DNA of 64,000 nucleotides from a virus. The notes under the pieces were generated by a model that saw only the letters and a program-made list of their open reading frames with translations, did no database searches and was not told where the DNA came from. The stretch lies in IMG/VR virus record IMGVR_UViG_3300009155_000038; one strand, 5' to 3'. This document shows, in pieces, positions 3,098-57,900 of this stretch; positions within the stretch are counted from its first letter, which is position 1, and each line of letters opens with the position of its first letter. Made by a program: the position numbers and the translations under genes.

Positions 3098-5905
3098 TCA
3101 GACCACCAAGTGCAGCTCAATGTTGTTGAGCGGCGCCGGGACAACAAGATCAAGAACAATTTCGATCCGATCTTTCAACAGCGGATGAATCTGCAGCGTA
3201 CGGATCGTACCGGAAATGAGCTGCGAGCCCAGTTCGTCGGTGAAACCGTTCGTAGACAGGAAATTAATCACGGCGTTAACTTCGTACTTCAGCCGGCGCA
3301 CCATGCCGTCTTGCGCGTTGGTGCGGCCGATGAACGGACGCAGGCGACGCAGGAACAGGTAGGACATGCTGTCCACGTTGCGGCGGATCATTTCTTCACG
3401 ACGATTCAGGTCGAGATTGTCCGTCGTCAAGGCGTGCCGTGTGTACGGCGTGCCGTCCTTGTCTTCAGTCACGATCCAGACACCCGACTCGGCCAAGTTG
3501 TTCAACTGTGTTTCGATGAAATACTTGTACGACCGGCTGTAATCATCGAAACCAGCGACTTCCACGTTGGTCAGCGGCTGGTGGGGCACAACACCCGACA
3601 CCAAACCGGCCAGCGCGGCCGACAGGTAGTAACCGGGCTGCAGCGTGCCAGCCTCGCCAACCTGATCGGGCCACACGCCGCACACGCGTCGATTCGACAG
3701 CGATCCGCCCTGATGGGCGATATCGGTAGCCACTTCGTTGCGGTTACGGTTGTGGTAGATCTCAACGCGCTGCGCAACTGTCACAGCCACGTCGCTGCCG
3801 GTATACAGCAGCAATGTCGACTCAGACAGCACCTTGTCGACGACGTACTCTTCGTACTGCGCGTCGCCAAAAGAATCGACCGTGAAGTTGTACCGGACGA
3901 GGTCGCCGGGCTGCACGTTGTTGGTGATAAAGTAGCCGTTACCGCTTGTAACCTGCAGCTTTGTGAACTGCGTGCCGGAAGCGGTCGGATCGTCGCTCAG
4001 CGTGGCAACAACGTCGTCTTCCACCACGTTGCCAAGCACGCCGCCGATTTCAACACCCATACCAACGAGCTTGACAACCGGGTGCGCCTTGAGCGAGAAG
4101 AAACCGGCCTTCCAGTTATTCTGAATCTCGTTCGATTCGGCACCGATGTGCGCAGCCCACAGGTTTTGAACCATGCGGTCAAACGTCAGCGGAACAAGGT
4201 TGTACAAGTCATCGCGACCCTTGATTCGCTCAAGCACCTGCACCCAGCTGTCGAGATTGCCGGGATCGGCGACCGCGGTGTACTTCACAACCGTGCCGTT
4301 GCTGTTGGAAAGCGCCTTGTAAACGCCCCACTTCAACGGGTTATCGGGATCGAGCTGACCAGCGATTTGGTCAAGATCAGCCACGTCGCTGATCGACTCA
4401 ACCGTGTCGGTCAGCGTCGACAGCCACTCACGGTACTCGACGTAAACTTCGCCGGCGTAAACGTCGAGCGGCTGCTCGACTCCACCGTCGGTCCACTCGG
4501 GGTGATACGCGATCACGCCTTCGTTGACGATGATCTGCGTAGCTTCAACTTCGTAATTCTTCATCGGCGCAAAGCCAATGCGGTTCTTGGATACTTCGAT
4601 GTTGTCCTTGATGAACAACTTCATCTCAAGGTTACAATTACGGCCACGCATGGCAACCGGAAGATCGTCACGCAGGTGGATTTCGTGAACCTCGCCAGCC
4701 TTGCTCGAAACGCAAGTGATGTACCACTTGTCGCCCTTACGCAGCCCGCCGTCATTCGTGAACTTAACCTTAACACCGTTGGTGCCGATGGCAACGCTGG
4801 TGTTCTTCGCCGAGATTTCAGTCGGACCTGAGAAATCGAGGCCCTTAGATGTGTACACCGTAATTTCCGGCAGGTCGGCATAAAGGCCGCCCTTCGTGCA
4901 CTCAACGATATAGATATCATTCTTATCGCCGGTGTACGCGCCGAGAAGATCGGGCGAAACCTCGTCTGTGGTGTAATTAGCCGCGTCAGCAACGGCAACA
5001 CCTGCCACGAACGTTTGCTGCACAACGATTCGCCACTTCTGGCCAACCTTCAGCAGGTTAACGTCGCTGAACGTAATGACAAGGTCACGCGTGCCAACGT
5101 CAGCATTGTTGCCGTAAGGCGTAACTTCCGCTACGTCATCGGTGCCGCTGGCGGACACAACACGCAGGCGGGCAGCGTCACAACCCACAACGGAGCTGCG
5201 CACTACTTCAACTGTGTACTCTTCCTTCACGTGGCCCGACACCAAACCGTCATAGGAAGTGCTAAGCGTCGCTGTCGGCGCGTCAGACACGAGCCCCGCA
5301 ATAAGCTCAACGCTCTGCGCCGCTGTGATTGAGGGCTGATTGTGCCCTTCAGCGCTCGCAGGAGCAATGCGCGACTTAACGTTGTCGCTGGAGAAGCCGG
5401 TCACAGTCGACCACAGCTCAGTAGCAGTGCAGTCGCCCGGAGAAACGTAGGTCATGTGAACCACGTCGCCGAGCTGCACGTCACGGTCAGCGAACACGCC
5501 GCTGCGGGGGTAAGCCGCGCCGTTCGACTTGAACGCAAGATTGTGCGAACGCACGATGTTGTTTTCAGGCCGATCGTTCGGGCTGTACACATGAAGGCTG
5601 CCGCAGCTGTACGGAGTTGCGTCAACAGCGGTGTTGTAATAGAGGAGCAGCGCGTCGTCGATATACACCTTGGTGTACTTGTCATCGATGCGGGAGCCCG
5701 GATTCCGCTGCGGCCACGAGTACGTCGTGTCGTGCAGGCGGTCATAGGCGCCGAGACGCGTGTAGGGCTTCTCGTCAACATTGCTGTGACGGTGAAGAAC
5801 AGCGTGAGGGCCGGCGATGTGAGCGCGCAGCGGCTCCGTGATCTCCGTGGGGACGATCTTGAATTCTTGGAAAACGAGAACTTGTGGTTTTACGTAGCTC
5901 GACAT
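3098..5905 (-). CDS. Tail sheath protein (935 aa)
   Basis: N-term YVKPQVLVFQE; C-term sheath signature (TQLNNLAESGVWIV..RHALTTD..EEMIRRNVD..DRIEIVLDLVVPAPLNNIELHLVV). Confidence 0.9.
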   Translation of the reverse strand: MSSYVKPQVLVFQEFKIVPTEITEPLRAHIAGPHAVLHRHSNVDEKPYTRLGAYDRLHDTTYSWPQRNPGSRIDDKYTKVYIDDALLLYYNTAVDATPYSCGSLHVYSPNDRPENNIVRSHNLAFKSNGAAYPRSGVFADRDVQLGDVVHMTYVSPGDCTATELWSTVTGFSSDNVKSRIAPASAEGHNQPSITAAQSVELIAGLVSDAPTATLSTSYDGLVSGHVKEEYTVEVVRSSVVGCDAARLRVVSASGTDDVAEVTPYGNNADVGTRDLVITFSDVNLLKVGQKWRIVVQQTFVAGVAVADAANYTTDEVSPDLLGAYTGDKNDIYIVECTKGGLYADLPEITVYTSKGLDFSGPTEISAKNTSVAIGTNGVKVKFTNDGGLRKGDKWYITCVSSKAGEVHEIHLRDDLPVAMRGRNCNLEMKLFIKDNIEVSKNRIGFAPMKNYEVEATQIIVNEGVIAYHPEWTDGGVEQPLDVYAGEVYVEYREWLSTLTDTVESISDVADLDQIAGQLDPDNPLKWGVYKALSNSNGTVVKYTAVADPGNLDSWVQVLERIKGRDDLYNLVPLTFDRMVQNLWAAHIGAESNEIQNNWKAGFFSLKAHPVVKLVGMGVEIGGVLGNVVEDDVVATLSDDPTASGTQFTKLQVTSGNGYFITNNVQPGDLVRYNFTVDSFGDAQYEEYVVDKVLSESTLLLYTGSDVAVTVAQRVEIYHNRNRNEVATDIAHQGGSLSNRRVCGVWPDQVGEAGTLQPGYYLSAALAGLVSGVVPHQPLTNVEVAGFDDYSRSYKYFIETQLNNLAESGVWIVTEDKDGTPYTRHALTTDNLDLNRREEMIRRNVDSMSYLFLRRLRPFIGRTNAQDGMVRRLKYEVNAVINFLSTNGFTDELGSQLISGTIRTLQIHPLLKDRIEIVLDLVVPAPLNNIELHLVV

Positions 5906-11641: not shown

Positions 11642-12067
11642 TCAGTTAGTGGGGGGATTAAGTCCAAGACCGGTGAACAACTTCACGTCGGAGGCCTTGA
11701 GGCGACCGTCGCGAGCGCCGACATAGCTGTTGGTCAGGCTGTTCGACGGGTCGTAGCCGGCTGTCTTTACAGACGAGACGGGTGTACCCAGTCGGGCCAT
11801 CTCAGCAGCGTTCTTGTGCGACGCCAGCTTGATAACAAGTTCCATAGCGCGCACCGGATCTTGAAGAGCTGCAGCGAGCGCTTCCTTCTGGTGAGCTTCA
11901 ATCCGCTCGTTCTCAACACACGCCTTAACGGCTTCAGGAATCAGTCGGGCGACCTTCTCCTGAGCAGCCTCTTGCGCGGTCAGAACCGAAGCAGCCTTGG
12001 TCATCGCGGCATCGGAGAATCCGATGTAGTCGATAACCTTTTGTACGAGCGCGTTGTTGCTAGACAT
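11642..12067 (-). CDS. Head assembly protein (scaffold-like, helical)
   Basis: GGAGG SD; EKVA, KLAS and KTAG motifs. Confidence 0.55.
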   Translation of the reverse strand: MSSNNALVQKVIDYIGFSDAAMTKAASVLTAQEAAQEKVARLIPEAVKACVENERIEAHQKEALAAALQDPVRAMELVIKLASHKNAAEMARLGTPVSSVKTAGYDPSNSLTNSYVGARDGRLKASDVKLFTGLGLNPPTN

Positions 12068-13478: not shown

Positions 13479-14939
13479 TCATGTGATATAATTTTGCAGT
13501 ACACAGTGGTTTGCTGTCAACCAATTATTTCCGTGTTTCTCGCAGACTGTCGCCAAGGCGGCAATCTTATACAGGGCGTAATGCTGAGCCAGAGCTTGTT
13601 CTGCTTTACCACTCGCCTGTTTTTCACGCGGAAACTCAATCGACCGGGCATCACGAAGCACGGCTAAGTAAGCCCGTTTTTCGACGCTGACCGGTAATAC
13701 GCTATGTGTATGTGCTACCTTTTCTGCCCATACGCGTGTAGCGTGTGAAGCAGCGTTAGCAGGATAATACACGTTGTTTTCAAGCAGGCTGACGACGTCT
13801 TGATCATTAGCCAACTTAGAAAAAACATTGGGCAGCGCATAAGCCACCGCACCAATAAGTTTCTCGTCAGCTGATTTAACTGTCAAGGCTAAGAAATCCC
13901 GCACAGGCAGAATTACACCAGCCTCAGCCAACCCGCATAACACTTCGGCCATTTTAACAGCCGGGCAGCCATTTACATCAATCGGCGGTTGTACGGCCGA
14001 TGACGAAGATAGCGCAACTTGTGTCCAGTTCGCAGCATTCGCGCCAGCAAGCTTCTCAGCCTGTACAAGTTGCTGCAGCGCTTCAAGCTGTAACTGCGCC
14101 CGAACAGACGCGTTTTTATCGTAATCAAAGCCAATAGGCGCTGTTACACCCAGCTGCTCAGCTAGTTCAGCGCCAGACAGAATGCAAGCGCCGGCGGCTT
14201 TTTCAAGCTTGCCCGACACATAAGCAATTCTGTCAGCGGGCCGGAATACGTGAGAAATATCAAAAAAGCTAGGGTTGGGGTTATCGGCGTGCAGCACATG
14301 CCCGTCTGACATAACCCGACCAATGTTGTGCTTCAGACCGCCTGCTTTACAGTGGCCACCGTTTTCAATTGAGTCGCAATACTCAGCGCGGGTCTTAGCC
14401 GTGTTACCGCAAGACGAACACTTATCAAACGGGATCTTGCAGGCCATTGAGACAGCGATGTCTTTTTCGTTGGCCAGCTTTTCCATTTCCTTGTCGGCAA
14501 TTAAACCGCCGTTGCGCTCTGCGGCTTCTTTCGAGCCGTTCAGTGCACAGACGAGTTCAATACGTCGCATCGGCTCGTGATAAGCGCTAGCTTTAACAAT
14601 ACCGAAGCTCTTGGCTGGATTCTTGTTGGCGTGGTCCCGATAGAAACGAGCAAACTTTTCGAACGTCGGGTGATACTTCTGGCAGCACTCGCGGGTGAAT
14701 CCGTCGCCGTTACGGTTCGGGCCGTAATCTTCCGTGGCGCCGATAGCGATCATGTGTACCGGAATTTCGTCTTTAGCGAACTTGATGTTGTCCAGCTTGT
14801 GAACAAACTCAGCGCCGGCGCGCTTGATAAGATCAGCCTTATCGCTGCCAATAATACCGCGGCTAGATATCTTAATCAGGCTGGCCACGGGCTCGCTGAA
14901 GTCTTGCGAATGCGGCTGGATAACTTTGATCATGCTCAT
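13479..14939 (-). CDS. Prohead (maturation) serine protease
   Basis: GPNRNGDGF..RDHANK..IAVSMACKIPFDKCSSCGN..FFDISHVFRPADRIA; conserved pattern of large-phage prohead proteases; typical position. Confidence 0.8.
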   Translation of the reverse strand: MSMIKVIQPHSQDFSEPVASLIKISSRGIIGSDKADLIKRAGAEFVHKLDNIKFAKDEIPVHMIAIGATEDYGPNRNGDGFTRECCQKYHPTFEKFARFYRDHANKNPAKSFGIVKASAYHEPMRRIELVCALNGSKEAAERNGGLIADKEMEKLANEKDIAVSMACKIPFDKCSSCGNTAKTRAEYCDSIENGGHCKAGGLKHNIGRVMSDGHVLHADNPNPSFFDISHVFRPADRIAYVSGKLEKAAGACILSGAELAEQLGVTAPIGFDYDKNASVRAQLQLEALQQLVQAEKLAGANAANWTQVALSSSSAVQPPIDVNGCPAVKMAEVLCGLAEAGVILPVRDFLALTVKSADEKLIGAVAYALPNVFSKLANDQDVVSLLENNVYYPANAASHATRVWAEKVAHTHSVLPVSVEKRAYLAVLRDARSIEFPREKQASGKAEQALAQHYALYKIAALATVCEKHGNNWLTANHCVLQNYIT

Positions 14940-15659: not shown

Positions 15660-17039
15660 TCAGATAAGTGTGCGGGCAGCTTGCTGTGCTTGATTAGTCG
15701 CCTTTTCAGTTTCAGCTTTCGCCTTTTCCAGCTCAACGAGTTGCTGTACGTCAAAGTCGGCCATCCCGCCAGACTCAAGACGCTTGCGCAGTAAAGCCTG
15801 CATGGCGGCGCTTGAGCCAGTAAAGTTTGGCGCCATCTCGGCGATTTGGTTATACGCGCTCGCTACTTCATTCGGGTCATAGCCGGAGATAACTGGGTCG
15901 TTAAGAATTAAATCGTTCAGCACGCCGCGGGACTTAATTTGCTGCAGCCGGTTTTCATGATCTGGGCTAGCAAGGCGCGCGAACGCTTTTTGTTTCTGCT
16001 GCATGGGATCTGTGGCGGCGTCGGCACGCGCGGCTTGATCGGCAATAGCGCCGCTACCCATAAGCTTGCCAAGGTTTGCCATAGTGCCACCGAACGATGT
16101 TAACGGCGCGGGAGCACTATCTTTTTTTTTGCCGTCGTCAGACGCTGCCTTGAGCGTCAGCGGTTCTTCAAGCGGGTTATACAGAATCGAGCCTGTAGTA
16201 AAAGTTGGCGCTGCTTTCTTATTGATTACAGACGCCTGCTTTACCGTATCAAGATTGCTTTTAGCCGTGTTGTAAGCGTCAACGGCGTCAAGCACGTTTG
16301 TTACAAGCGAATAAGGACCGGTAAGGCCCAGATGTGTTTCACCGGTGGCGGCCTGCTTTTCAAGGTGCGGATAAACAGCGGCGAGCTTGTTCAGCACGGC
16401 CACGCCTTCGGCACCCAGACGCAGGTCAACTTCTCGCAGCGCGTCGCCAAATGACATATGGCCGGGCTTGCGGAAATAGTCGTGCAGCATATCCATTGCG
16501 TCCGCAGCCTTCTGATAAGCCATGGTCGAAATGCGGCGCGTCTCTTCAGCAGCGCGTTTTTCAGCCGCTTTCTGGCTGTAAGCACGCTCAGCAGCAAACT
16601 TCTCGTCGCGCGGGGGCGGGACGAACGTCTTGGCCGGAAGCTGATATTGCGCGGCGGCTGCTTTTTCAAGCGACGCGTTACGGCGAGCTAAGAACCCGGC
16701 CGGCGAAACAGCGTACTCGGTCGACACGATTGATTCTGATAACAATTCGCTCGATGTCTTGACCTGTTTGGGATACAGCGCCTCAAGAACAGAGTCAGCG
16801 TCGGCAAGCTGGAAGTCAGCGGACTTCTCAGTGGCGTCATCGCCCTGCTCGCGCTGCTTGGTGGTGCGGCCCGTGTTATAGGCGTGCACCATAAGATTAA
16901 TGTGGCCCGCCGGTACATTCGCTTCCGACGCGCTCTTTACGATTGCGTCGTTTGGCGAAGAGCCGGCATTTACGAGAGTAGCCGCGCGCTCAATGGCGCT
17001 GATAAGTTTCTGTTCGGCTTCTTTGCTGAGTGAACGCAT
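15660..17039 (-). CDS. Internal head/core protein with many K-x-A/S motifs
   Basis: 459 aa helical; KSAS, EKSAD, KTSS, EKAAA, EKQAA, KQAS, KKAA, KAAS. Confidence 0.6.
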   Translation of the reverse strand: MRSLSKEAEQKLISAIERAATLVNAGSSPNDAIVKSASEANVPAGHINLMVHAYNTGRTTKQREQGDDATEKSADFQLADADSVLEALYPKQVKTSSELLSESIVSTEYAVSPAGFLARRNASLEKAAAAQYQLPAKTFVPPPRDEKFAAERAYSQKAAEKRAAEETRRISTMAYQKAADAMDMLHDYFRKPGHMSFGDALREVDLRLGAEGVAVLNKLAAVYPHLEKQAATGETHLGLTGPYSLVTNVLDAVDAYNTAKSNLDTVKQASVINKKAAPTFTTGSILYNPLEEPLTLKAASDDGKKKDSAPAPLTSFGGTMANLGKLMGSGAIADQAARADAATDPMQQKQKAFARLASPDHENRLQQIKSRGVLNDLILNDPVISGYDPNEVASAYNQIAEMAPNFTGSSAAMQALLRKRLESGGMADFDVQQLVELEKAKAETEKATNQAQQAARTLI

Positions 17040-45223: not shown

Positions 45224-46897
45224 TTACATGGCTCCTGCCGGCTGCGCTGGCTGCCCCGGCTGGCCCGGGTAGTGAAACGGGCTACGCACGCTGGGAATGT
45301 ACGACCGAGCAGTATCTACGCCGGACTGGATAGCGTTGCCAGCTGCAGTTGCGCCAGATTGAATAGCGTTGCCAGCCGCTGTAGCTGCTTGGCCCGGCAG
45401 CGCGGCAATCTGACCCGGAATGCTGGCGATGTTCTTGGCGCCCTGCACTAAACCCTCCCCAAAACCACCTACTGCTGCGCCGGCTTGCCGGAACGGAAGT
45501 GTGACATTGTTATACATGCGTGCGCCGCTGTAATACATGCTCTTGGCAGCTTGGTCGCTGCTATCAGCAAAGTTATTTAAACCCCGCTGCATGGAGTTAC
45601 CAGTCTGCTGCAAGTAGTTGCCGGCGCTACTGGCAAAGTTGCCAATACCCCGCGCAGCATCGCCCATAAAGCCAGCTTCTTTGCCAATAGCGTTTCCAAA
45701 CAAGTACGCCTGCGACATCTTCTGCTGTGTCATACCGACATCTTCGGGCTGCGGGCTGTTCGTGCTCTTCTGCTCATCATTGATCTTCTTGAGCGTACCG
45801 CGGCTCGAAGGCGTCTCTGTCATCGAAGTACAACCGCAATCCTTGGCGGCTGTCTTCTCTTCTGTCTTCTTCTTCGTAGCCTTCTTGCCCTTGGGTCGGC
45901 AGGAGTCGTTGCTATAGGGCGCCTTGCCCGGCACTGGCTCGTAGCCCGTCCAGCACCGACCCGCCGAGAGCTTTTCAAGCGCAGCGCCGAATGCTTGCAA
46001 GTCACTGCTCTTCTTGACGCCACGCACGCTGTTGTTTTCCAGATTGTTATTCAGCTGGCCCTGCAGATACGCGTGATAGTGGGGATCTTGACCGCCGTTG
46101 ATGCCGCCACGACCGTTGAGCATGTCCATGATGCTTTGCGCGCCGCCCTGCATGTTCTTTCCAAGATAGCCGCCGTGCGCTGCTCCCAAGCCCGCCAGAC
46201 CCAGTCCAGCTGCGCCCAGACCCATACCCAGCCCGGAATTGCCGCCACCATGGGCAAACGCACCCATCAACGCCAGCGGAACACCAGCACCAATTGCGTA
46301 GCGGGCTTCAAGCGGCAGGTTGTTCCACATGTCCATGAGGCCGCCACCGCCTTGAGCAGGCGAGTGCTGGACCGGATACGGCATTGGTGCTACGGCGTCT
46401 TGACCATTGCCGTAAAACAATTTGTTCTTAAGCGATGTCAAACCAGCAGCTGTACCGCCGGCTACTGCTGCGCCTGTGCCGATGTTGCCCCATGTGCGCG
46501 GGGCTGGTCGGACAGGCAGCGCAAAATTATCAGCCCGGCGGCTCGGAATCATGCCCGTGCCGGGGTTGGGTCCAGTAAGCCGCGGAGTACCGTCAGGCGC
46601 TGGCGCACCCTTGCCGCGAAACCCGTTCACAAAGTCCTTGCCGGCGTCCACAACCTTGCCAGCACCGTGCCGCGTGGCTGCGCCCAAGTTATTCAGCGCT
46701 GTCAGGCTCTCGTCAGCCGCGATACCCACCCCACGACCAGCAGCATTCAAACCGCGCTGCAACATGCTTGGCGCGGCTTGCTGCGCTGCTTGCTGGGCAG
46801 CTCCGCGGGCAGCTGCGGGAATCAGCGCTCCCATACCGCCGCCAGCTTGCTTGGCCATCTGCTGTTCCATCGCTGCAATAAATTCTTGCGGTGTCAT
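45224..46897 (-). CDS. Multi-module glycine-rich virion cargo protein
   Basis: MTPQEF..KQAG; glycine zippers; CWTGYEPVPGK..SCRP module; FGAALEKLSA, FGNAIGKEAG; late-embryogenesis-like AGNAIQSG repeats. Confidence 0.65.
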   Translation of the reverse strand: MTPQEFIAAMEQQMAKQAGGGMGALIPAAARGAAQQAAQQAAPSMLQRGLNAAGRGVGIAADESLTALNNLGAATRHGAGKVVDAGKDFVNGFRGKGAPAPDGTPRLTGPNPGTGMIPSRRADNFALPVRPAPRTWGNIGTGAAVAGGTAAGLTSLKNKLFYGNGQDAVAPMPYPVQHSPAQGGGGLMDMWNNLPLEARYAIGAGVPLALMGAFAHGGGNSGLGMGLGAAGLGLAGLGAAHGGYLGKNMQGGAQSIMDMLNGRGGINGGQDPHYHAYLQGQLNNNLENNSVRGVKKSSDLQAFGAALEKLSAGRCWTGYEPVPGKAPYSNDSCRPKGKKATKKKTEEKTAAKDCGCTSMTETPSSRGTLKKINDEQKSTNSPQPEDVGMTQQKMSQAYLFGNAIGKEAGFMGDAARGIGNFASSAGNYLQQTGNSMQRGLNNFADSSDQAAKSMYYSGARMYNNVTLPFRQAGAAVGGFGEGLVQGAKNIASIPGQIAALPGQAATAAGNAIQSGATAAGNAIQSGVDTARSYIPSVRSPFHYPGQPGQPAQPAGAM

Positions 46898-47630: not shown

Positions 47631-48200
47631 TCACCACTTAAACTCAACGGGTTTACGAGTCTTGTACTTCACGCTGAAATCAATCGGCGACTGAAACTTG
47701 ATATCTGGCAGCGGAAGCTTGGGGGCTACATTGGCGCCAGCGGCCAGTAAACCACCGGCAGCCACAGTCGGAATGCCCATCGGGGCGTCGCCCAGCATCT
47801 TGATGCCCTTGCCCAGCTCGCCAATGCCCTGCCCAACTGCAGAAACACCGTGGCCAGTGAGATGCGTCGCTTTGCCGCCCAGTCGCGCTGTATGCCCCAG
47901 TGCGCCAACGATATCGCGCAGAATACCCTGAAATTGCGCTTTGTTCACCGGTCGCACAGCCTGCGTACCAGCCGACATGCCTGCGCGCCCCACAGCGCGA
48001 GTGGCCTGACCAACTGCGTCAATGCCGCTGCCTACGCCGCCGACAATGCCGCCGGCTCCGCGCACAACGCTCTTCGAAGCGTCATTAACAGCGCTCAGCG
48101 CCTTACCGGCCGTGCCTGCAGCGCGACCAAGGCCAGCAAATAAACCGCCAGCTCGCTTTTCGTGCCCGCCGACCAGATATCCAAAATCAAATGGCGTCAT
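47631..48200 (-). CDS. Gly/Ala-rich amphipathic virion cargo protein
   Basis: MTPFDFGYLVGGHEKRAG N-term; G/A-rich helices. Confidence 0.65.
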   Translation of the reverse strand: MTPFDFGYLVGGHEKRAGGLFAGLGRAAGTAGKALSAVNDASKSVVRGAGGIVGGVGSGIDAVGQATRAVGRAGMSAGTQAVRPVNKAQFQGILRDIVGALGHTARLGGKATHLTGHGVSAVGQGIGELGKGIKMLGDAPMGIPTVAAGGLLAAGANVAPKLPLPDIKFQSPIDFSVKYKTRKPVEFKW

Positions 48201-48218: not shown

Positions 48219-49034
48219 TTAAAAGTTCAGCATCTTCTTGGGTTTGAATTGCCCCGGTGGCAACTTTGGCGCCATAGGAGCTGGAGCCGGTGCCGGTGCC
48301 GGTGCCGGCGGCGCTGGCATTTGCGGTTGCTGCATCTGTTGCTGATATGCGCGCATATCTGGTGTCATGTAATGTTCGCCGCGAGCAATCGCGCCAACAG
48401 TAAGAGGATCTGCCGGACCAAACCCACCGGCCGCCGCTTGAATTGGCTTCGTGACAATAAAGTTGCGCGCTGTTGTTGGCGCATTGCGAAGCGCAGCGCC
48501 ATAGCCAGCAGCACCCGTTGCGGCTGGTACCGCTGGCGCCACGGTGGGCAAGGCTTTCTGAATACCAGCGCCCATCGATTTCTGCGCGTTTGTTACAATT
48601 TTGGTGCCCTTGTTCAACGCGTTTGCAGTACCTGTCAATGCTTTGCCGGCAGTAGTAGCCCCAGCGCCAGCCAGTCGCGCTCCGCCCCGAGCCAGCCCCT
48701 TAGTCGCAGCGCCGCTCAAAAGGCCGCCTGCCCCCGGTAAAAAGCTGAGTGCGCCTTCGCCCACTGAACCCAGCGCGCTCAAATACCGGCCGTTATACAA
48801 ATGGCGAGCCGTGTCGTTAATGGCTGTGGGTACGCCAGAAATGGGGTTTGAATACTGCGCCACGTGTTGAACTATGCCGCGCTGCATCGGATCGACAGCC
48901 TGCGTTGTCATTGGCGCGGTGCCAAACGCTGCGTTACCGGTTTCGCTCCAACTAGGAATCCAGTCGCCCTCGGCCCAGCCGGCTTGCTTCTTCAAATACA
49001 GCCCAACATGCTGGCCGAATTCGTATGGTTGCAT
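48219..49034 (-). CDS. Gly/Ala-rich virion cargo protein
   Basis: MQPYEFGQHVGLYLKKQAG N-term; ALSFLPGAGG; PA-repeat tail. Confidence 0.65.
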   Translation of the reverse strand: MQPYEFGQHVGLYLKKQAGWAEGDWIPSWSETGNAAFGTAPMTTQAVDPMQRGIVQHVAQYSNPISGVPTAINDTARHLYNGRYLSALGSVGEGALSFLPGAGGLLSGAATKGLARGGARLAGAGATTAGKALTGTANALNKGTKIVTNAQKSMGAGIQKALPTVAPAVPAATGAAGYGAALRNAPTTARNFIVTKPIQAAAGGFGPADPLTVGAIARGEHYMTPDMRAYQQQMQQPQMPAPPAPAPAPAPAPMAPKLPPGQFKPKKMLNF

Positions 49035-49049: not shown

Positions 49050-49412
49050 TTACCGAGTCTCGTGTGGCTTCAGGCACTTACGTTTCAGCATGGCTTTTTT
49101 GTATTCAGCGGCCATTTTCCGCACATCTTTGTTATAGCAATGATAACTCATGCAGTGGCCAAACACAATGTGACACGGACTGCCGCATAGGGTGATTAAG
49201 TTATTCGGGTCCAGCTGTTTTGTCTCGTCGAAGCCCACTGGAATCACGTGATGGACCTCTAAATTGGCTGTTCTACCGCACGCTGCACAGGCTGGCTCTT
49301 TGAGCAAATGCTCGTCCCGAATAGCGCGCCATTGGCTTGCCCGCTGGCGTAACTCCAGAATACGCCGGGGCCGCCACGCAAGCGGAAGCAGGTTGATTAG
49401 GAATTCAAGCAT
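49050..49412 (-). CDS. HNH endonuclease
   Basis: CAACG..EVHHVIP..DPNNLITLC..CH; start ATG 49412 overlaps the AlkB-like stop. Confidence 0.85.
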   Translation of the reverse strand: MLEFLINLLPLAWRPRRILELRQRASQWRAIRDEHLLKEPACAACGRTANLEVHHVIPVGFDETKQLDPNNLITLCGSPCHIVFGHCMSYHCYNKDVRKMAAEYKKAMLKRKCLKPHETR

Positions 49413-49947
49413 GGCCGTCACAGCTGCAACGAAAGACAAGGGAGTATCTACGGCGCACAACTGGCTCGATAGCGTGCTGCCACTCAGTGCGAATCTCGTC
49501 ATGTAATTGGACAAGACTTCGGGGCGGTAACTCAATAGCAAAGCGCGCTTGGTCCCGTACAAATATCATTGTGGCCGGTGACTCGACGCTCAATACAGTG
49601 ACAATGCGCCCACTGGCGGGGTTATCAATATGAAGCGCAATGCTCTGGCCCCGTAAATATTCGTTAATAGAAACAGAATCGGGCAGCACACTGACGAGCT
49701 TGTTTTCTAGTAATCTGTCGCACAGCGCTTGTAAGTAGGCTGGGATAGTGTCGGCTAGCATGTACGAGCCGTATGACTTGTCCGAGCCGTAGCGCCGGAC
49801 GCTCTGCCTGTTTGTGTCCCGGGGTTGGGCGTTATGGGGTGCGCCTGAGCTACACCGCGCAATCAAGTGCTGCTCTTCGGTAGGCGTAATAAACTCGCCG
49901 TACAAGCGCAGGCCAATAGGCTCATGCCCCGTCACGATTTGTTGCAT
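49405..49947 (-). CDS. AlkB-like 2OG-Fe(II) dioxygenase
   Basis: INEY..G..I.LHID (HxD), WQHAI (H), RRYSLVFR. Confidence 0.85.
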   Translation of the reverse strand: MQQIVTGHEPIGLRLYGEFITPTEEQHLIARCSSGAPHNAQPRDTNRQSVRRYGSDKSYGSYMLADTIPAYLQALCDRLLENKLVSVLPDSVSINEYLRGQSIALHIDNPASGRIVTVLSVESPATMIFVRDQARFAIELPPRSLVQLHDEIRTEWQHAIEPVVRRRYSLVFRCSCDGHA

Positions 49948-50070
49948 GTGGCGCCCCGACTTCTTTGCTGCCCGCTTTGTGCTTGGGCACATATGGGCAG
50001 TTCTTACATTTGTTCCCACAGCATTTGCCGTACTGTAGGAGTTTCTCCCGTGACATCGGCCTTGGGGCCG

Positions 50071-50334: not shown

Positions 50335-50688
50335 TCACTGCATTGAAGCAGCGTGCGTGAAATGCCGCTCATACTGGACGTAAATCTCAGCATACGCCAC
50401 ACCCCATGCCGGATCGTGCGCTAACTTATTGAACGCGGCGTCATCTTTGGCCTCGTCCAGCATGTGGTTCCACGCCCGAGCATGCGCCCACTCATGGATC
50501 AGCACGTCCATGGCCCGGCCTTCGTCCAGCGCCCGGTCAATCTGGATGTGGAACTTCTTGCCGTGTTTCCAGCAGCGGCCCTCTAGCTTGGAGAGCTTCA
50601 CACGGCGCACACTCACAGGAAATGCCGCGGGGCAGTCCTGTTTGAGCATGCGGAGAAGGGCCTGATAATATCTAAATCGAGCGGCCAT
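50335..50688 (-). CDS. SprT/zincin-like metallopeptidase
   Basis: LIHEWAHA (HExxH) plus downstream H..WG. Confidence 0.7.
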   Translation of the reverse strand: MAARFRYYQALLRMLKQDCPAAFPVSVRRVKLSKLEGRCWKHGKKFHIQIDRALDEGRAMDVLIHEWAHARAWNHMLDEAKDDAAFNKLAHDPAWGVAYAEIYVQYERHFTHAASMQ

Positions 50689-52362: not shown

Positions 52363-54903
52363 TTACGCGTTGGATTTATCGGCTGTTGAGTCGTCAGCCC
52401 CGCCATTTGAAGTAGCTGGTGCTTGTGCCACCAATTTAACATTGCTCGGGCGCAATTTCAATTTCTTCAGGCGGGCTTTCAACCGTTCGCTCTGTAACGG
52501 CATGGAGTTAAATACAGCCGCAAGCTTCTCTGGCTCGTGATTCTTGCTGCCCTCTTCGCGCAGAATACGCCTGAATTCTTCGTTGACTTGCTCTTTTTCA
52601 TTGGCTAAATGAGCCAATACTTCGTCGCCAGTGCGTTCGCGCTTGTAGCCCATGAGCCTGCCCAACACACTGGGGTCTTCCGAGCTACTTAGATATCTTT
52701 GTACCGCGACGTTCTTGAGTTCCTCTGGCAGCCCAACATGAGAGTCAAACCGTAACCCACGACCACGCGCCTGCTGGCTACGGGTTTCGTTCCAATGCGG
52801 GTCTAAAAGTTGGATAAGACTGGTGCCCTTGGTCGACAACCCTTCGGCGCCAGCGGGGCCAATAAGGAGCGCTCTGAGCTTGCCGGCGTTGTACGCATCG
52901 ACAGCGGCTTGGCGGGCCTTGGGTGTCACGCCGCCATGAAAGAACCCGTGCGGGACTTTGGCTTTCTCTAGCGCGCTGGCATACGGGGCTAAGCCAGACT
53001 CTACAAAGTTCGAGTAGATGATGGCTTTCTTGCGTGGGTCTGTCTGCAGTTCTTTCTGCAGGTTATTAAATGCAGCTTGAAGCTTGGCGCTCTGCGTAAA
53101 CGCTTTGCTCGGGTCTTTGTCTACCCTGAATGGCTGCGTGGAGAGACTCACTTGGCGCATGCCCGACATAAAAGAGTTTAGCTTGGCCAGCTCTTCGCGC
53201 GACAGCGGGAACTCATGGTCGATCTTCCATAAGAATCCCGGCGGAATCTTCGTGCGAATAGCTTTCTGGATCTTCTGCTGTTCTGCACTCAGTGGTACGT
53301 GCACTGTCTGCTCGTTGATGTTCACGCCTTCTGGTGTCTTGCTGGGCTGATAGTCTACGTGGCCAGCAAGAAGCTTTCTTAGGCCAGCTTCGTTTTTGAC
53401 AACTGGTTTGACACCCGGCTGCGCGCCCCTGAGCCAGCCCATAATCCCCGGCCACACTGTCTTCTGGCCTACGTACTGCTTGTTAAACTCTTCAGGCGTG
53501 ATCTGCTTGTTATGAATCAGCGACAAGAGATTAGCCATGTCGCTGGGCTCATTGGTAACAGGCGAACCAGTGAGCAGCAAGAGTCTTTTAGCGGCTGCAG
53601 CAGCTTGCGCAGCGGCTTGGGAGCTAGCAGCGTTGGGATTACGTAATCTATGGGCCTCGTCCATGATGAGCGTGCTGGGCTGCTCTTGGAATTTCTTGCC
53701 CAGCCCCAGCCCCGTATAACTCATGACCTCGGGATCAGAGCCAGTTGTGAACTTCTTGATCTCTTTCTCGAAGTTGCCCTTCAAGCTAGCAGGCGCCACG
53801 ATGCCGTAAGTACCGCCGAACTTCTTCTTGGCGGCTTCTGCGGCAGCTAATGCAGAAAGAGACTTGCCACTACCCAAGCCGTGATAGACAAGCATGCGGG
53901 GCTCGTCTTCTGTGACTTCGTCAGCTATTCTTTGCTGGTGGGGTTGTAACTGGACTTCTGGAAGCAAATCAGCTTGCTTTTCAGCCACGTACTTCTGCAT
54001 AGCTTTGCGCTGGTAGTCGTCTAGCATCTCTACTACACCATTTCGCGCGTCGTTAGTAACCAATTTCGCAGGGTCGATTCCCCAGTTGCGTAAAGCCCAG
54101 CCTCTACGTGGTGTTGGATTACTCACAAAGGGCCCGCCGTGTCGCGCTTTGAAGCTAGACCAGCGCTTAATCTGCCGTTCGTCTTCTTCTGGGATGCGCC
54201 GGCCAGCTGAGTAGCGCTTATACCACTGCGCCCAGCCCTTCGGGTCATGCTTTGACACCCACTCGGGCTTCCACTCGCCCAGACTAGCCAATCTGGGGCC
54301 TTGGTTTCTATACAGCGCGTCGTACACGCCCAAGTTCTCAAGCTGCTCAGGCGTGTAGTCTGGCTGAAACTTGTCGGCGATGTCCGCAGTTCGCGAATCG
54401 AGGACAGGAACATCGGCAGCAGCGTGCTTTGCCCACGCTTTGCCAGCTAACTCAGCAAACCGTTTGCGCAGTGCGTCCTTGTCATCAAACTGCTCGATGT
54501 TACGCATGTGGTCAGTGAGTTTTACTTTGTGCGTCTTCGTGGGCGTGACATCGTGTGGCACAGACCAGCCAAGATTCGGATCGCTTTCGGGCGGCGCAGA
54601 ATATTGGTCAGAATCGTACTCGTATACATCGCCCTCGGGCAGCAGCGCGTTGTTTTTGTAGATGAGCAGCTTGGGGTTTGCGCCGCCAATAACAGCCATG
54701 CCCTTGCGATCTTTGGCTAATGCGTACAGCGCAGCCCAGTCCAAATTATCAGTGCCGTAGACACCAGCGCCGCCCATATTTGGCTGCTGGGCTTTCAGCG
54801 TAGTTAAACCGGGCGTTGTTGAGCCGTGATAGAACGTCTTGGCGCCCTTCTCCCACGCACTGCCAGCCGCCTGCGCAATGATATCTTTATCCAGATCAGG
54901 CAT
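52363..54903 (-). CDS. Polyprotein-like fusion: ADP-ribosyltransferase-like domain + conserved viral domain + SF2 (SNF2-like) helicase
   Basis: FYHGS..GVYGT..A..YA..VYE; DPKGWAQWYKRY..GRR..EDERQIKRW; HGLGSGKS, DEAH, LLTGSP, QQARGRGLR; KHAA, KQAD and KLAA at boundaries. Confidence 0.8.
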   Translation of the reverse strand: MPDLDKDIIAQAAGSAWEKGAKTFYHGSTTPGLTTLKAQQPNMGGAGVYGTDNLDWAALYALAKDRKGMAVIGGANPKLLIYKNNALLPEGDVYEYDSDQYSAPPESDPNLGWSVPHDVTPTKTHKVKLTDHMRNIEQFDDKDALRKRFAELAGKAWAKHAAADVPVLDSRTADIADKFQPDYTPEQLENLGVYDALYRNQGPRLASLGEWKPEWVSKHDPKGWAQWYKRYSAGRRIPEEDERQIKRWSSFKARHGGPFVSNPTPRRGWALRNWGIDPAKLVTNDARNGVVEMLDDYQRKAMQKYVAEKQADLLPEVQLQPHQQRIADEVTEDEPRMLVYHGLGSGKSLSALAAAEAAKKKFGGTYGIVAPASLKGNFEKEIKKFTTGSDPEVMSYTGLGLGKKFQEQPSTLIMDEAHRLRNPNAASSQAAAQAAAAAKRLLLLTGSPVTNEPSDMANLLSLIHNKQITPEEFNKQYVGQKTVWPGIMGWLRGAQPGVKPVVKNEAGLRKLLAGHVDYQPSKTPEGVNINEQTVHVPLSAEQQKIQKAIRTKIPPGFLWKIDHEFPLSREELAKLNSFMSGMRQVSLSTQPFRVDKDPSKAFTQSAKLQAAFNNLQKELQTDPRKKAIIYSNFVESGLAPYASALEKAKVPHGFFHGGVTPKARQAAVDAYNAGKLRALLIGPAGAEGLSTKGTSLIQLLDPHWNETRSQQARGRGLRFDSHVGLPEELKNVAVQRYLSSSEDPSVLGRLMGYKRERTGDEVLAHLANEKEQVNEEFRRILREEGSKNHEPEKLAAVFNSMPLQSERLKARLKKLKLRPSNVKLVAQAPATSNGGADDSTADKSNA

Positions 54904-54917
54904 GGGTGCGTTTCCGC

Positions 54918-55772
54918 TCACTGTACAGCGTCGAGAATAGGCGTCTGGCCTTCGGTGGCCCGCGCCTGCTTGGCTAGCTCGTATTGCTCGATCTGTGATT
55001 CTACCCAATCCGCGTACAAACTAACACGGGTATGCGCCGACTCGTCTGTGTACGTTCCGTTGGGCTTGCCGTCTTTGGCCATGAGAAACGAGTGTATTCC
55101 AGCTAGTTTGTTACCTATAAACAAGCCGCCGCCAGAATCACCGGGGGTAATTAAGAACTCCAGCACTGTTTTCTGGTACATGCTGGGGTCACACACTAAG
55201 ACAGAGCGCTCTAGGCTCGTAATCTTGTTACTTCCAGCCCTACGCTTGCCGTCTTGCTCTGCCATGCCCGTATGAAACGTGCCCTGAAAGCCAAAGCCGG
55301 CCATAGTAGCCTCTTTGCCCAGCTCGTCTGTCTCTGTGTACAGCGCTGGATAGAACGTTAACCCCAAGTCTTTCGCTGAATAGCACAGGGCGATGTCGTA
55401 GTACCCGTTCTTGCCGTCGTCAAACAAGGGGTGCGAGATCGTGTGCTGGATGGGGTATTCTGTCGGATCCAGCTCGTCGCCAAGAATAGTGGGCTGCGCG
55501 ACGTCGATTAAGACGTGCGCGGCAGTGAGCACCCAGTGTGGGCGAATCATCACTGCGGAGCCGTAGAAGACATGAATAGCTTTGGGGTCTTTGGGGGCGC
55601 GCTCTTCGGCCCTGATTCTGCGCACAAACGGGAACTTCTTGCCAAACTCGACGTACTTCTCGTCGGGAGTTTCGGGATCGCGAGTGCCGGCTGTAATGGG
55701 CCCGCCTGACACACCCGCTAGGCAGAGAAAGATCAGAAGCACGCGGCGGAGAATAATAATTGCAGCATCCAT
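54918..55772 (-). CDS. Secreted trypsin-like (S1) serine protease
   Basis: Signal peptide; LTAAHV, DIAL, GDSGG triad. Confidence 0.9.
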   Translation of the reverse strand: MDAAIIILRRVLLIFLCLAGVSGGPITAGTRDPETPDEKYVEFGKKFPFVRRIRAEERAPKDPKAIHVFYGSAVMIRPHWVLTAAHVLIDVAQPTILGDELDPTEYPIQHTISHPLFDDGKNGYYDIALCYSAKDLGLTFYPALYTETDELGKEATMAGFGFQGTFHTGMAEQDGKRRAGSNKITSLERSVLVCDPSMYQKTVLEFLITPGDSGGGLFIGNKLAGIHSFLMAKDGKPNGTYTDESAHTRVSLYADWVESQIEQYELAKQARATEGQTPILDAVQ

Positions 55773-55854: not shown

Positions 55855-57837
55855 TTACGCCGGGGCTGCGCCTAGCTCGTTGTCGGGTTTCTTGCGCCTC
55901 GACCTGCCCCACGCATGGGCTGCTGCGAGGGCTGCAGCGCCACCAGCACCAAGTGCAAGTGCTGGTGCGTACTTGCCCATGCCCTTGAAGCTAGGCATAG
56001 CGCTGGGTGTCGGGGTGGGTACAGGCGCAGGAGCTGGCATAGCGCTGCGAGCAGCATTCTGAATAGCACCAGTGGCTTTATAGCCAGCAGCGCCCATCAA
56101 ACCCATGGCGCCAGCACCTAAGAGCGCACGCCTACCGCCGGCCATGCGAAGTTGCTTGAGCAAGAGCTGCTTATTCGTTGCCAGCAGCGGCTCAAACTCG
56201 CCAGAGATAGCTACTCTGTTGGGCAGCGTGATGGCATTCGGGAACTTGCTCTTTGTTTTACCCAGCGCTTCGTATACAGTCGCCGGGAACGACCCACACA
56301 TATGCCCGTCGCATGTGTTCACATTCTTATTGAACCCCGGAATGTATTTTGCGAGATTCGACAGGCCAGTAATCTCACCGATAGCGCCCAAGCCAGCATT
56401 CCCGATCGCGTAACCCTTGAGCCCTTCGGCTTTCAAGAGCGGATCTAACGCGCCGCCAACATCAGGGCCTTTTGGACGCAACCAGAGTGTGCCCTTGGGA
56501 CCATAGTAGTGCCCGCGGGGATGTAATCGTGAGCCCTCAAGAATCGTATGTTTGTATACGTTGTCAGCCTCGGGAACGTACATGCTGCCGGGGCGCATCT
56601 TGGCTCGCGCTACGTCAGCGGCATAGTCCGCCGGCTGATTGCGCAGCTCTTTCATTAACAGCGACCAGCCATACCCAGCCGACGGGTCTTTCTGGTATGC
56701 GCGCCATTGCTTCGGACTGAATGGCCCGTCAACGAAGTCAAGGCCGCGAAACCCAAGCGTTTCGAGCGGTGTCATGTTCGTTCGGCCCGTGTTCATGCCG
56801 CCGTGTAACACAGTCGGCACAAACGTCTCGAATTTCTTGGGCTTAAAGATAGCAGAACGCGCTGGCGCCGGGCCGGGCACACCGACCTGATCCACTTGTT
56901 TCATTAAGTCTGTAGACAGCGCCTTCATGCGCGGGTTGTTCTTGTACTTCTCGCCAAACAAGTCAGCCAGCGACTTGATCTTCTGCCGTTTGGCGTTATT
57001 GGCAGCTTCTATGGCTGCAGGGTGCTTGGCTGTAACATCGCTACGCACGCTAGAGAGGAAGTCATCGGCTTTGCCAGTAGGCGTCTTGGGTTCAGCAAAC
57101 TGCTGCAACTCGGGCCGCGACAGAAACTTCTTGAAGTCTCTCACCGACGTGCTTCTAAGCTTTTGAAGCCTTTGTAATTTAGCTAACTCTTCCGTGCTGA
57201 GCCGCGGGTCTTTGGGTGGTTTGGCATTACTCGTGCTTTTGTCATACGCCTCCCACGCCCGTTGGCGCTTTTGAAGCGGCGCTAGCTCTTTGGCGCGCCC
57301 CCGAAGCCGCTCTTTCGTGTTACCGTATGTATCAGTGCCGGCCGTCCCGTCGTCTGCCCACTCATAGCCGCGGTTTGATGCGTTTAGGAACCGCTTGGGA
57401 TCTTTCGCTTCTATGTCTGAGAACAAGTCGCCGCGGTCGTTGCGCAGAAACGCGAGATCCGGCGGCATTTCGCCCTTGGGTGTGCGGGACACACTATGGT
57501 GGGCTTTGACATTGGGCCCGGCAATCTGGCCATGCGCGCCCGGACCGCCTGAAGCGCCGAACGAGCCATGCACAAGCACATTGGTAAACGGGTCGGTGCT
57601 GCCCTGTAACCCAGAGATGCCGTAGTCGCCCGGCTTGATCGTCCTGAGCACCTTGGCCACGTCGACATGCCCATCGGCTGTTGTGGCATCTTCAGCCGCT
57701 TCGAGCAGCTTTTTATAGGCCGGGTAGTCGTGCCGAACGTAATCCCAGAGACTCTTCGCTGGCAGTGCAGCGCCAGCCACAGCGCCCGCGGGCCTGAAAT
57801 CAATAGGGCGCTTCTGGTCTTGGTTGTCAGCCGGCAT
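55855..57837 (-). CDS. Large protein with possible permuted papain-like C-domain and glycine-zipper tail
   Basis: GGAG SD before ATG 57837; H..(KHTILEG) then MCGSFPATVY..TLPN; C-term LLGAGAMGLMGAAG, ALGAGGAAA followed by a basic tail. Confidence 0.5.
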   Translation of the reverse strand: MPADNQDQKRPIDFRPAGAVAGAALPAKSLWDYVRHDYPAYKKLLEAAEDATTADGHVDVAKVLRTIKPGDYGISGLQGSTDPFTNVLVHGSFGASGGPGAHGQIAGPNVKAHHSVSRTPKGEMPPDLAFLRNDRGDLFSDIEAKDPKRFLNASNRGYEWADDGTAGTDTYGNTKERLRGRAKELAPLQKRQRAWEAYDKSTSNAKPPKDPRLSTEELAKLQRLQKLRSTSVRDFKKFLSRPELQQFAEPKTPTGKADDFLSSVRSDVTAKHPAAIEAANNAKRQKIKSLADLFGEKYKNNPRMKALSTDLMKQVDQVGVPGPAPARSAIFKPKKFETFVPTVLHGGMNTGRTNMTPLETLGFRGLDFVDGPFSPKQWRAYQKDPSAGYGWSLLMKELRNQPADYAADVARAKMRPGSMYVPEADNVYKHTILEGSRLHPRGHYYGPKGTLWLRPKGPDVGGALDPLLKAEGLKGYAIGNAGLGAIGEITGLSNLAKYIPGFNKNVNTCDGHMCGSFPATVYEALGKTKSKFPNAITLPNRVAISGEFEPLLATNKQLLLKQLRMAGGRRALLGAGAMGLMGAAGYKATGAIQNAARSAMPAPAPVPTPTPSAMPSFKGMGKYAPALALGAGGAAALAAAHAWGRSRRKKPDNELGAAPA

Positions 57838-57868
57838 AACACATGCTCCTGAAGATGTATACCCCGTG

Positions 57869-57876
57869 AGTATACA
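57869..57876 (-). promoter_or_regulatory. Candidate late promoter element TGTATACT
   Basis: Downstream of a terminator, about 30 nt upstream of ATG 57837. Confidence 0.4.
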
Positions 57877-57900
57877 GTCGGTCATTTTAACCTAAAAGCG

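Follow-up and report, generated by a model that had tools for sequence, protein, structure and literature searches.

Introduction

Virion-packaged effectors and polyvalent proteins are predicted to be widespread phage weapons. For polyvalent proteins, packaging, delivery and processing into separate units have been predicted (Iyer, Burroughs, Anand, de Souza, Aravind 2017, PMC5512222), with embedded peptidases suggested as the processing enzymes on the analogy of RNA-virus polyproteins (PMC5512222). In a 2022 survey it was argued that ADP-ribosyltransferases (ARTs) and Nudix domains are often packaged in the virions of myoviruses. How such multi-domain precursors are separated has so far mostly been guessed, usually by assuming an embedded peptidase. 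Here, we describe a polyprotein gene in the IMG/VR virus record IMGVR_UViG_3300009155_000038, of which a stretch of 64,000 nucleotides (the window) was analysed. Its product, P0001, contains an ART-fold domain (M1), a helical domain (M2) and a SNF2-type helicase, and a three-residue motif, Lys-x-Ala/Ser (K-x-[AS]), is found at the junctions between them.

The polyprotein resembles the known polyvalent proteins in having several unrelated effector domains, ART and SWI2/SNF2 hubs, and extensive mosaicism. It differs from them in lacking an embedded zincin (MPTase), MuF, ArdC-N or methylase domain, and in its short and explicit junction motif, which is apparently read in trans. Further, M1 is of the H-Y-E type, whereas the triad of ART-PolyVal is stated as H-Y-D, and the constant core of the polyprotein family is M2 together with the helicase.

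In phage T4, the capsid targeting sequence (CTS) MKTYQEFIAE is cut off by the prohead protease. The T4 internal proteins and Alt share with the polyprotein a short leader followed by a three-residue site, an ART cargo, and delivery with the DNA, the latter being a proposal for the polyprotein; the leader of a neighbouring gene also has QEFIA in common with the T4 CTS. However, in T4 one gp21 cut at L/I-x-E removes the leader, whereas the polyprotein motif has Lys first and Ala/Ser third and is also located between domains, which would give several products. Head proteases have three-residue codes comparable to the polyprotein motif, L/I-x-E in T4 and V/L-x-A|S for the herpesvirus assemblin.

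In SPN3US, head proteins are cut at AXE, and all the identified cleavages remove N-terminal propeptides. The phiKZ/SPN3US system (gp175/gp245, (S/A/G)-x-E) is similar to the present one in that it belongs to large phages with their own multisubunit RNA polymerase (RNAP) and uses a three-residue code; it has many head-internal proteins, and propeptides with multiple sites. The polyprotein differs in its motif and in that its sites would separate enzymes, and no sequence relationship between the two systems was found. Finally, P1 DarB is a packaged methylase-helicase antirestriction protein, encoded with the head genes and not known to be cut into modules. Compared by description, the polyprotein resembles DarB as a large helicase protein proposed to be delivered for the incoming DNA, and lacks the methylase.

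We found no description in the literature of a K-x-A/S phage cleavage motif or of the phage lineage that encodes the polyprotein. The 'moraphage' lineage has no RNAP and is unrelated.

Results

K-x-[AS] is concentrated at the module boundaries

An earlier note on this DNA, made from the letters alone, had divided the gene into three modules with K-x-A exactly at their junctions. When mapped across homologues the three modules are real and separable, and the motif is indeed present at K159 (54429), K309 (53979) and K793 (52527). A fourth site, K19-G-A, had been overlooked; it immediately precedes the first strand of M1, see Table 1.

In the polyprotein itself, K.A occurs 6 times with 7.8+-2.5 expected, and K.[AS] also 6 times with 12.3 expected (z = -2.0). 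Four of the six K.[AS] are at the junctions, and two are inside the approximately 720 core residues.

The family was analysed using the best 120 of 429 homologues, and M1, M2 and the helicase were mapped onto each of them. The flanking windows were defined as the 20 amino acids (aa) directly outside the module cores, 391 of which are unique, and the shuffles were composition-matched. K.[AS] is present in 87% of the flanking windows, compared with 5% of in-core windows and 36% (maximum 42%) of the shuffles. Counted over the 120 homologues, there are 384 junction occurrences against 163 expected, i.e. a 2.4-fold enrichment, while the 70,423 core residues contain 161 against 848 expected, a ratio of 0.19. 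Neither the enrichment at junctions nor the depletion in cores is seen for the control motifs R.[AS], [AS].K, K[AS] and K.[LV]. The junction z-scores are inflated by the relatedness of the homologues; the contrast with the control motifs is not.

The local logo of the junctions reads E/A - K - x (Q>T>A) - A/S - A/E/D - L. The helicase is preceded by K-x-[AS]-[DEA]-L in all 120 homologues, equivalent E-K-x-[AS]-A-V-F sites come before the C-terminal tails of homologues, and similar basic tails follow K-x-[AS] in further homologues. At the junction sites the codons for K, x and A/S vary freely, and therefore selection acts on the protein. A DNA-level recombination site, which was also considered for the junction motif, is ruled out by the same free variation.

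Because of the contrast with the control motifs, the diversity of the flanking modules and the varied codons, we attribute the pattern to protein-level selection on K-x-[AS], and judged from the sequences the junction motif is a selected feature. As would be expected from the substrate of a prohead protease, the family has a short boundary motif that is avoided elsewhere. A protease site is the best reading, since the tripeptide is concentrated at boundaries and has been removed from folded interiors. Taken together, we lean towards the view that the polyprotein is a modular precursor of the polyvalent kind, which would be cut at K-x-[AS] and packaged.

Leaders and K.[AS] content in the rest of the window

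In the AlphaFold2 (AF2) model, residues 1-16 of the polyprotein leader are disordered, with a predicted local distance difference test (pLDDT) below 50. The leader is kept in many homologues, even in those that lack M1, and it is similar to the leaders of neighbouring genes and to the T4 CTS. Three unrelated neighbours (45224-46897, 47631-48200 and 48219-49034, all on the minus strand) have a common leader of about 15 residues, M[TQ]P.[ED]F[GI].., and in all three it is closed by K-x-A at residues 15-18. The product of 45224-46897 opens with MTPQEFIA.., which is similar to the T4 CTS, MKTYQEFIAE. The comparison with T4 Alt made in the earlier note fits the N-terminal leaders of both the polyprotein and the neighbouring genes.

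Three open reading frames (ORFs) presumed to belong to the head region have an excess of K.[AS], with z from 3.6 to 4.4 (Table 1). They have no match in Pfam, PHROG or the PDB and could encode scaffold or core proteins that are broken down during maturation. In large folded proteins of the window K.[AS] is instead strongly depleted. The 676-aa product of 55855..57885 (minus strand) has one site against 9.8 expected (z = -3.4). The lone site is 38 residues short of the C-terminus and is followed by a basic tail rich in Ala and Gly. The design of this protein is like that of the polyprotein: a site-free folded body and a tail after the site.

Module 1 has an ADP-ribosyltransferase fold

To M1 the earlier note had assigned an Arr/PARP-like ART fold, and this is upheld by the fold search and by the conserved H-G-S/Y/Y/E set. 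The AF2 model of M1 was made from 35 homologues (pLDDT 85.8) and aligned without pre-filtering to 48,161 PDB representative chains (VIA). ARTs make up nearly the whole of the top 50. The best match is TreX (Z 7.8, root-mean-square deviation 3.6, 94 aa), and the others include a Tpt1-type enzyme (Z 6.4), Arr (5.5-6.2), diphtheria-toxin homologues including Chelona (5.2-5.8), Scabin (5.5), pertussis toxin (5.2) and PARPs (about 5). These are modest Z values, and with Foldseek the E is 0.16 or worse; the assignment of the fold is nevertheless secure because the match list consists uniformly of ARTs. The model has the split beta-sheet fold of the ARTs.

Among the aligned M1 homologues, the conserved residues are H26 (33/34), G27 (34/34) and S28 (33/34). 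Position 49 is Tyr in 31 and Phe in 3, Y60 and Y94 are invariant (35/35 each), and E95 is found in 30/35. M1 thus has the H-G-S / Tyr / second Tyr / acidic signature of H-Y-E ARTs, with the catalytic-type residues assigned by their position in the secondary-structure elements and not by residue-level superposition. The layout HGS..Y-x10-Y..E-Y is that of diphtheria toxin and PARP1, and the Y49-x10-Y60 spacing matches that of Y54/Y65 in diphtheria toxin and Y896/Y907 in PARP1.

At the sequence level M1 is distant from the described families. Pfam ART-PolyVal (PF18760) matches with 14.9-17.5 bits (E 0.007-0.046), over strands 1-2 only and below the gathering cutoff of 31.2, and the remote homologue P0166 scores just 15.2 bits. 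No ART match was obtained in the PDB profile search, and the IMG/VR scan gave no close M1 relatives. The module is rare, with 30 matches among 1.84 billion representative proteins, mostly within multidomain proteins of 1000-2300 aa. M1 is a predicted H-Y-E (diphtheria toxin/PARP/Arr-like) ADP-ribosyltransferase with a putative NAD+-dependent activity, and it forms a new ART clade.

At rank 29 in the list of structural matches (Z 4.4) is a region resembling ARTs in a pre-ejectosome protein of cyanophage A4 (PDB 9k3a chain B). This is a solved ART-fold domain within a phage ejection complex.

M2 and the helicase form the constant core

M2 is modelled with high confidence (pLDDT 92.6) as an all-helical domain. 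Pfam gives nothing at E <= 10, and is likewise empty for remote stand-alone homologues. The PDB profile search gave nothing, Foldseek found nothing in the PDB at E <= 0.001, and the search of BFVD gave nothing useful. In the wide VIA search the best match is the C-terminal domain of mimivirus R596, whose Z of 5.0 is inside the noise range, and a giant-virus kinship of M2 is a weak lead. In Atlas, the only matches are unnamed viral clusters (score 0.84). According to the model, M2 is a confident all-helical fold without a known relative.

Clear M2 homologues are found in Vibrio jumbo phages. Stand-alone homologues of about 170 aa exist, including an ORF of the Vibrio jumbo phage pVa-21 and a protein from a metagenome-assembled genome of Saccharibacteria. 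The M2-family ORF of pVa-21 (L002, KY499642.1; MTTTNNKSNQWHPDF..) is unannotated and located at about 3960-4440 on the plus strand, between pVa21_055 and pVa21_057; the small annotated coding sequence pVa21_056 overlaps its end.

The third module is a complete SNF2-like helicase, as had been claimed. The Pfam cutoffs are exceeded by SNF2-rel_dom (41.5 bits, cutoff 24.9), Helicase_C (47.3 bits, cutoff 23.5) and ResIII, whose matches span residues 317-720. Motifs I, II, III and VI are intact (GLGSGKS342, DEAH415, TGSP445 and QARGRGLR711), so that both the Pfam scores and the full motif set place the module in the SNF2/SWI2 family. The best PDB sequence matches are Rad26/CSB, Rad54 and ISWI.

Among cultured phages, the closest helicase homologues are gp217 of Salmonella phage Arash and the helicase of Pseudanabaena phage PA-SR01, at about 31% identity. 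The gene for Arash gp217 lies beside those for an RNAP subunit and structural proteins, and its product was detected, together with RNAP subunits, when virions were analysed by mass spectrometry. It seems that a SNF2 ATPase accompanies the virion machinery in phages that have an RNA polymerase of their own. Candidate roles of the helicase would be as an RNAP accessory factor or in DNA protection. Parallels for the former are RapA and poxvirus NPH-I, and for the latter P1 DarB.

Modules are shuffled across the family

The earlier note had proposed checking whether the modules occur in other combinations. They do, in different orders, in different combinations and as separate genes, with 33 architectures among the 120 homologues. 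Of these, 117 have both M2 and the helicase, in either order or in adjacent genes, and M2 is thus a near-obligate partner of the helicase rather than the independent effector that had been suggested. The order is M2-helicase in about 80 homologues and helicase-M2 in 36. In one locus (L033) the two are encoded as adjacent genes, and separately encoded M2 genes carry their own short leader closing in K-x-A. The swapped order and the split genes imply that covalent linkage is not functionally needed.

M1 is present in about 13 of the 120 homologues, before or after M2, and is one of many optional, exchangeable cassettes. The inserts range from 80 to 850 aa and form at least 28 unrelated groups, in which a P-loop kinase, NUDIX, DUF4269, DUF6321 and PAP2 can be recognised. 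With an ART, M2 and a SNF2 module and with mosaic relatives, the polyprotein combines at least two unrelated effector-type domains in the way that characterises polyvalent proteins.

The linkers on the two sides of M1 are similar to each other (AAGSAWEKGA at 54838-54870 and LAGKAWAKHA at 54418-54450, minus strand) and have two 7-nucleotide DNA words in common. Homologues without M1 retain a single hybrid linker, ..AAGSAWAKHA.., which is what gain or loss of the cassette through recombination of its flanks would produce.

Remote polyproteins of 1700-2344 aa use the same arrangement on a larger scale: P0166 (2011 aa), P0159, P0175 and L043:8251-15285 (+) (2344 aa) hold up to about 10 modules, with E-K-T-S/A ahead of each. 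Their modules include PAP2, ART, three or four NUDIX stretches, DUF4269, P-loop kinases and M2. In P0166 the order is PAP2, an unassigned module, ART, several NUDIX, DUF4269, kinase and M2. An ART together with NUDIX and kinase modules is suggestive of a toolkit for NAD+/ADP-ribose.

Discussion

A proposed packaged precursor cut at K-x-[AS]

In the mechanism that we propose, the polyprotein would be made late in infection and taken up into the prohead, possibly by way of the short leader at its N-terminus, its C-terminal tail or both. A phage maturation protease reading Lys-x-Ala/Ser would then cut at K19, K159, K309 and K793 and free an H-Y-E type ART, the helical protein M2 and a SNF2 ATPase. 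The products would be delivered with the DNA and act as the infection begins. M2 and the helicase would be the constant functional pair, plausibly working on DNA or with the multisubunit RNA polymerase of the phage, and the ART would be one of many exchangeable accessory cassettes. Packaging is suggested by analogy, by the gene context and by the detection of Arash gp217 in virions. A broader proposal, to which we give somewhat less than even credence, is that K-x-[Ala/Ser] is the code of a maturation protease in a large clade of uncultured freshwater phages of about 200 kb, and that whatever enzyme cassette is inserted between two such sites of the M2-helicase gene (ART, NUDIX, kinase, PAP2 or one of dozens of unknown folds) is co-packaged and released as a separate injected effector.

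Several points weigh against the packaged and cleaved precursor. No prohead protease could be recognised in the window, where the head-region ORFs have no sequence match in Pfam, PHROG or the PDB. Minimal M2-helicase homologues (about 625 aa) lack the N-terminal leader as well as the C-terminal tail, so that packaging does not depend on a leader in every case. The K-x-[AS]-D-L-L-P block ahead of the helicase is invariant and could be part of the helicase. The likeness of M1 to ARTs is only structural (Z <=7.8, weak Foldseek matches, Pfam below cutoff), and E95 is substituted in 5/35 homologues. Arash gp217 is, unlike module 3, a stand-alone helicase of 472 aa, with no leader, M1, M2 or junction site, and the Arash virion preparation was very inclusive, with 116 proteins listed, ribonucleotide reductase among them. 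Cleavage, the scissile bond, the identity of the protease, packaging, injection, the ART activity and its targets are what we infer for this protein.

The same invariant block and the same minimal homologues without terminal peptides are what would be expected if the protein were an uncleaved multidomain enzyme, packaged or not, with K-x-[AS] as a conserved linker or boundary element that, for instance, caps a helix, docks onto scaffold or portal, or marks a seam at which recombination is tolerated. There are also precedents, as the N4 virion RNAP and the ArdC and TraC1 polyvalent proteins are delivered unprocessed. However, the five-fold purge of the motif from the cores, with flat controls, is hard to explain without a sequence-specific reader. 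The free permutation of M2 and helicase, together with the split genes, indicates that linkage and geometry are immaterial, and an enzyme acting in one piece does not account for the K-x-A that also closes the short leaders of unrelated neighbouring proteins. We therefore regard an uncleaved enzyme as unlikely.

If the protein is cleaved, the cut might instead be made in the cytoplasm, with products that are not virion cargo and serve replication, repair or transcription. P0001 and the 15 homologues that were fully scanned showed no embedded peptidase (zincin MPTase or assemblin-like) and no MuF or portal domain. In most related loci, the polyprotein has a conserved SprT-like gene with an HExxH motif and a conserved AlkB-like oxygenase gene downstream of it, and the SprT-like zincin is a candidate cytoplasmic protease. 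For polyvalent proteins, zincin peptidases have been proposed to do the processing, and SNF2 ATPases are common as replication and repair factors. However, the SprT-like match is below the Pfam cutoff, and within 9 kb of the remote polyproteins, which use the same code, neither the SprT-like nor the trypsin-like gene was found. The K.[AS] enrichment in the head region and the leaders resembling the T4 CTS point to head maturation, and the Arash homologue was found in virions. Cytoplasmic processing thus appears quite improbable. The SprT-like and AlkB-like neighbours may form a DNA-repair or processing pair.

The gene directly upstream of the polyprotein encodes a trypsin-family protease in 34/37 related loci, and its best PDB matches are proteinase 3 / myeloblastin. 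Proteinase 3 prefers a small residue at P1. From this position and similarity, the neighbour could be thought to cut the K-x-[AS] sites. We set it aside as the processing enzyme since all of its homologues carry Sec signal peptides: in 25/25 distinct homologues a Sec-type signal peptide is followed by a conserved mature N-terminus, GTRDP.TPD.KY.EFG. The protease is thus, from its sequence, probably periplasmic, whereas the polyprotein has no signal peptide; in addition, the gene is not adjacent in the remote lineage. This makes it a very doubtful cutter. Its own role is possibly in lysis or envelope attack.

That the junction K-x-A arose by chance in an ordinary fused helicase, as the motif count in the single polyprotein (at or below expectation) might suggest, is effectively refuted by the family-wide statistics with their controls and by the recurrence in remote lineages.

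Implications for phage polyproteins

The comparative data yield an explicit and testable three-residue junction code that is common to distant lineages. It allows hundreds of uncharacterised polyproteins to be parsed into modules, most of them without a known fold or family. If the broader proposal above is true, these proteins would be a phage equivalent of the RNA-virus polyproteins, with effector boundaries that are predictable from sequence. Confirmed cleavage would reveal a new specificity class of phage maturation protease and a rare true polyprotein strategy in a double-stranded DNA phage.

Gene and genomic setting

The features of the locus are listed in Table 1. The start of the polyprotein gene is the ATG at 54903, and the N-termini of the homologues likewise open with MPD..DIIA. 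An alternative TTG start at 55008 was rejected, as it overlaps the upstream gene and is not backed by the homologue N-termini.

Table 1. Features of the polyprotein locus and of the K.[AS]-rich ORFs in the window.
Feature	Coordinates	Strand	Details and evidence
Whole polyprotein gene (P0001)	52363..54903	-	846 aa + stop; ORF listing, translation, homologue N-termini
N-terminal leader, residues 1-21 (MPD..DIIA..AG.AW.K-G-A)	54841..54903	-	closes with junction site 1, K19-G-A21; AF2, homologues
Module 1 (M1), residues 22-150, ADP-ribosyltransferase-fold domain	54454..54840	-	H26-G-S, Y49, Y60, Y94-E95; AF2, fold search, conservation
Junction site 2, K159-H-A161, M1-M2 linker	54421..54429	-	sequence; pLDDT <50 at residues 157-160
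Module 2 (M2), residues 176-305, all-alpha domain	53989..54378	-	DPKGW..WY.RY..GRRIPEED.RQIKRW..RH; AF2, homologues
Junction site 3, K309-Q-A311, then D-L-L-P-E-V	53971..53979	-	homologue comparison
Module 3 (HEL), residues 312-787, SNF2-type SF2 ATPase/helicase	52543..53970	-	Pfam, motifs, PHROG 62
Junction site 4, K793-L-A795	52519..52527	-	sequence, homologues
C-terminal basic tail, residues 796-846	52366..52518	-	kept as module 'CT' in close homologues
Secreted trypsin-family serine protease, upstream neighbour	54918..55772	-	Pfam Trypsin E 2.3e-14
Small SprT-like HExxH zincin, downstream neighbour	50335..50688	-	Pfam SprT-like E 6e-4, below cutoff; HEWAH motif
AlkB-like 2OG-Fe(II) oxygenase, downstream	49405-50019	-	conserved in most related loci
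K.[AS]-rich ORF	11642-12067	-	7 vs 2.3 expected
K.[AS]-rich ORF	13479-14939	-	18 vs 7.3 expected
K.[AS]-rich ORF	15660-17039	-	16 vs 7.7 expected

The window is a long co-directional array of phage genes that includes a multisubunit RNA-polymerase gene. No relative of the window was found at the nucleotide level among 50,697 phage records. An identical polyprotein is recorded on a 195-kb contig, its relatives come from metagenomic contigs of about 200 kb, and the source of the polyprotein is an uncultured lake phage of about 200 kb.

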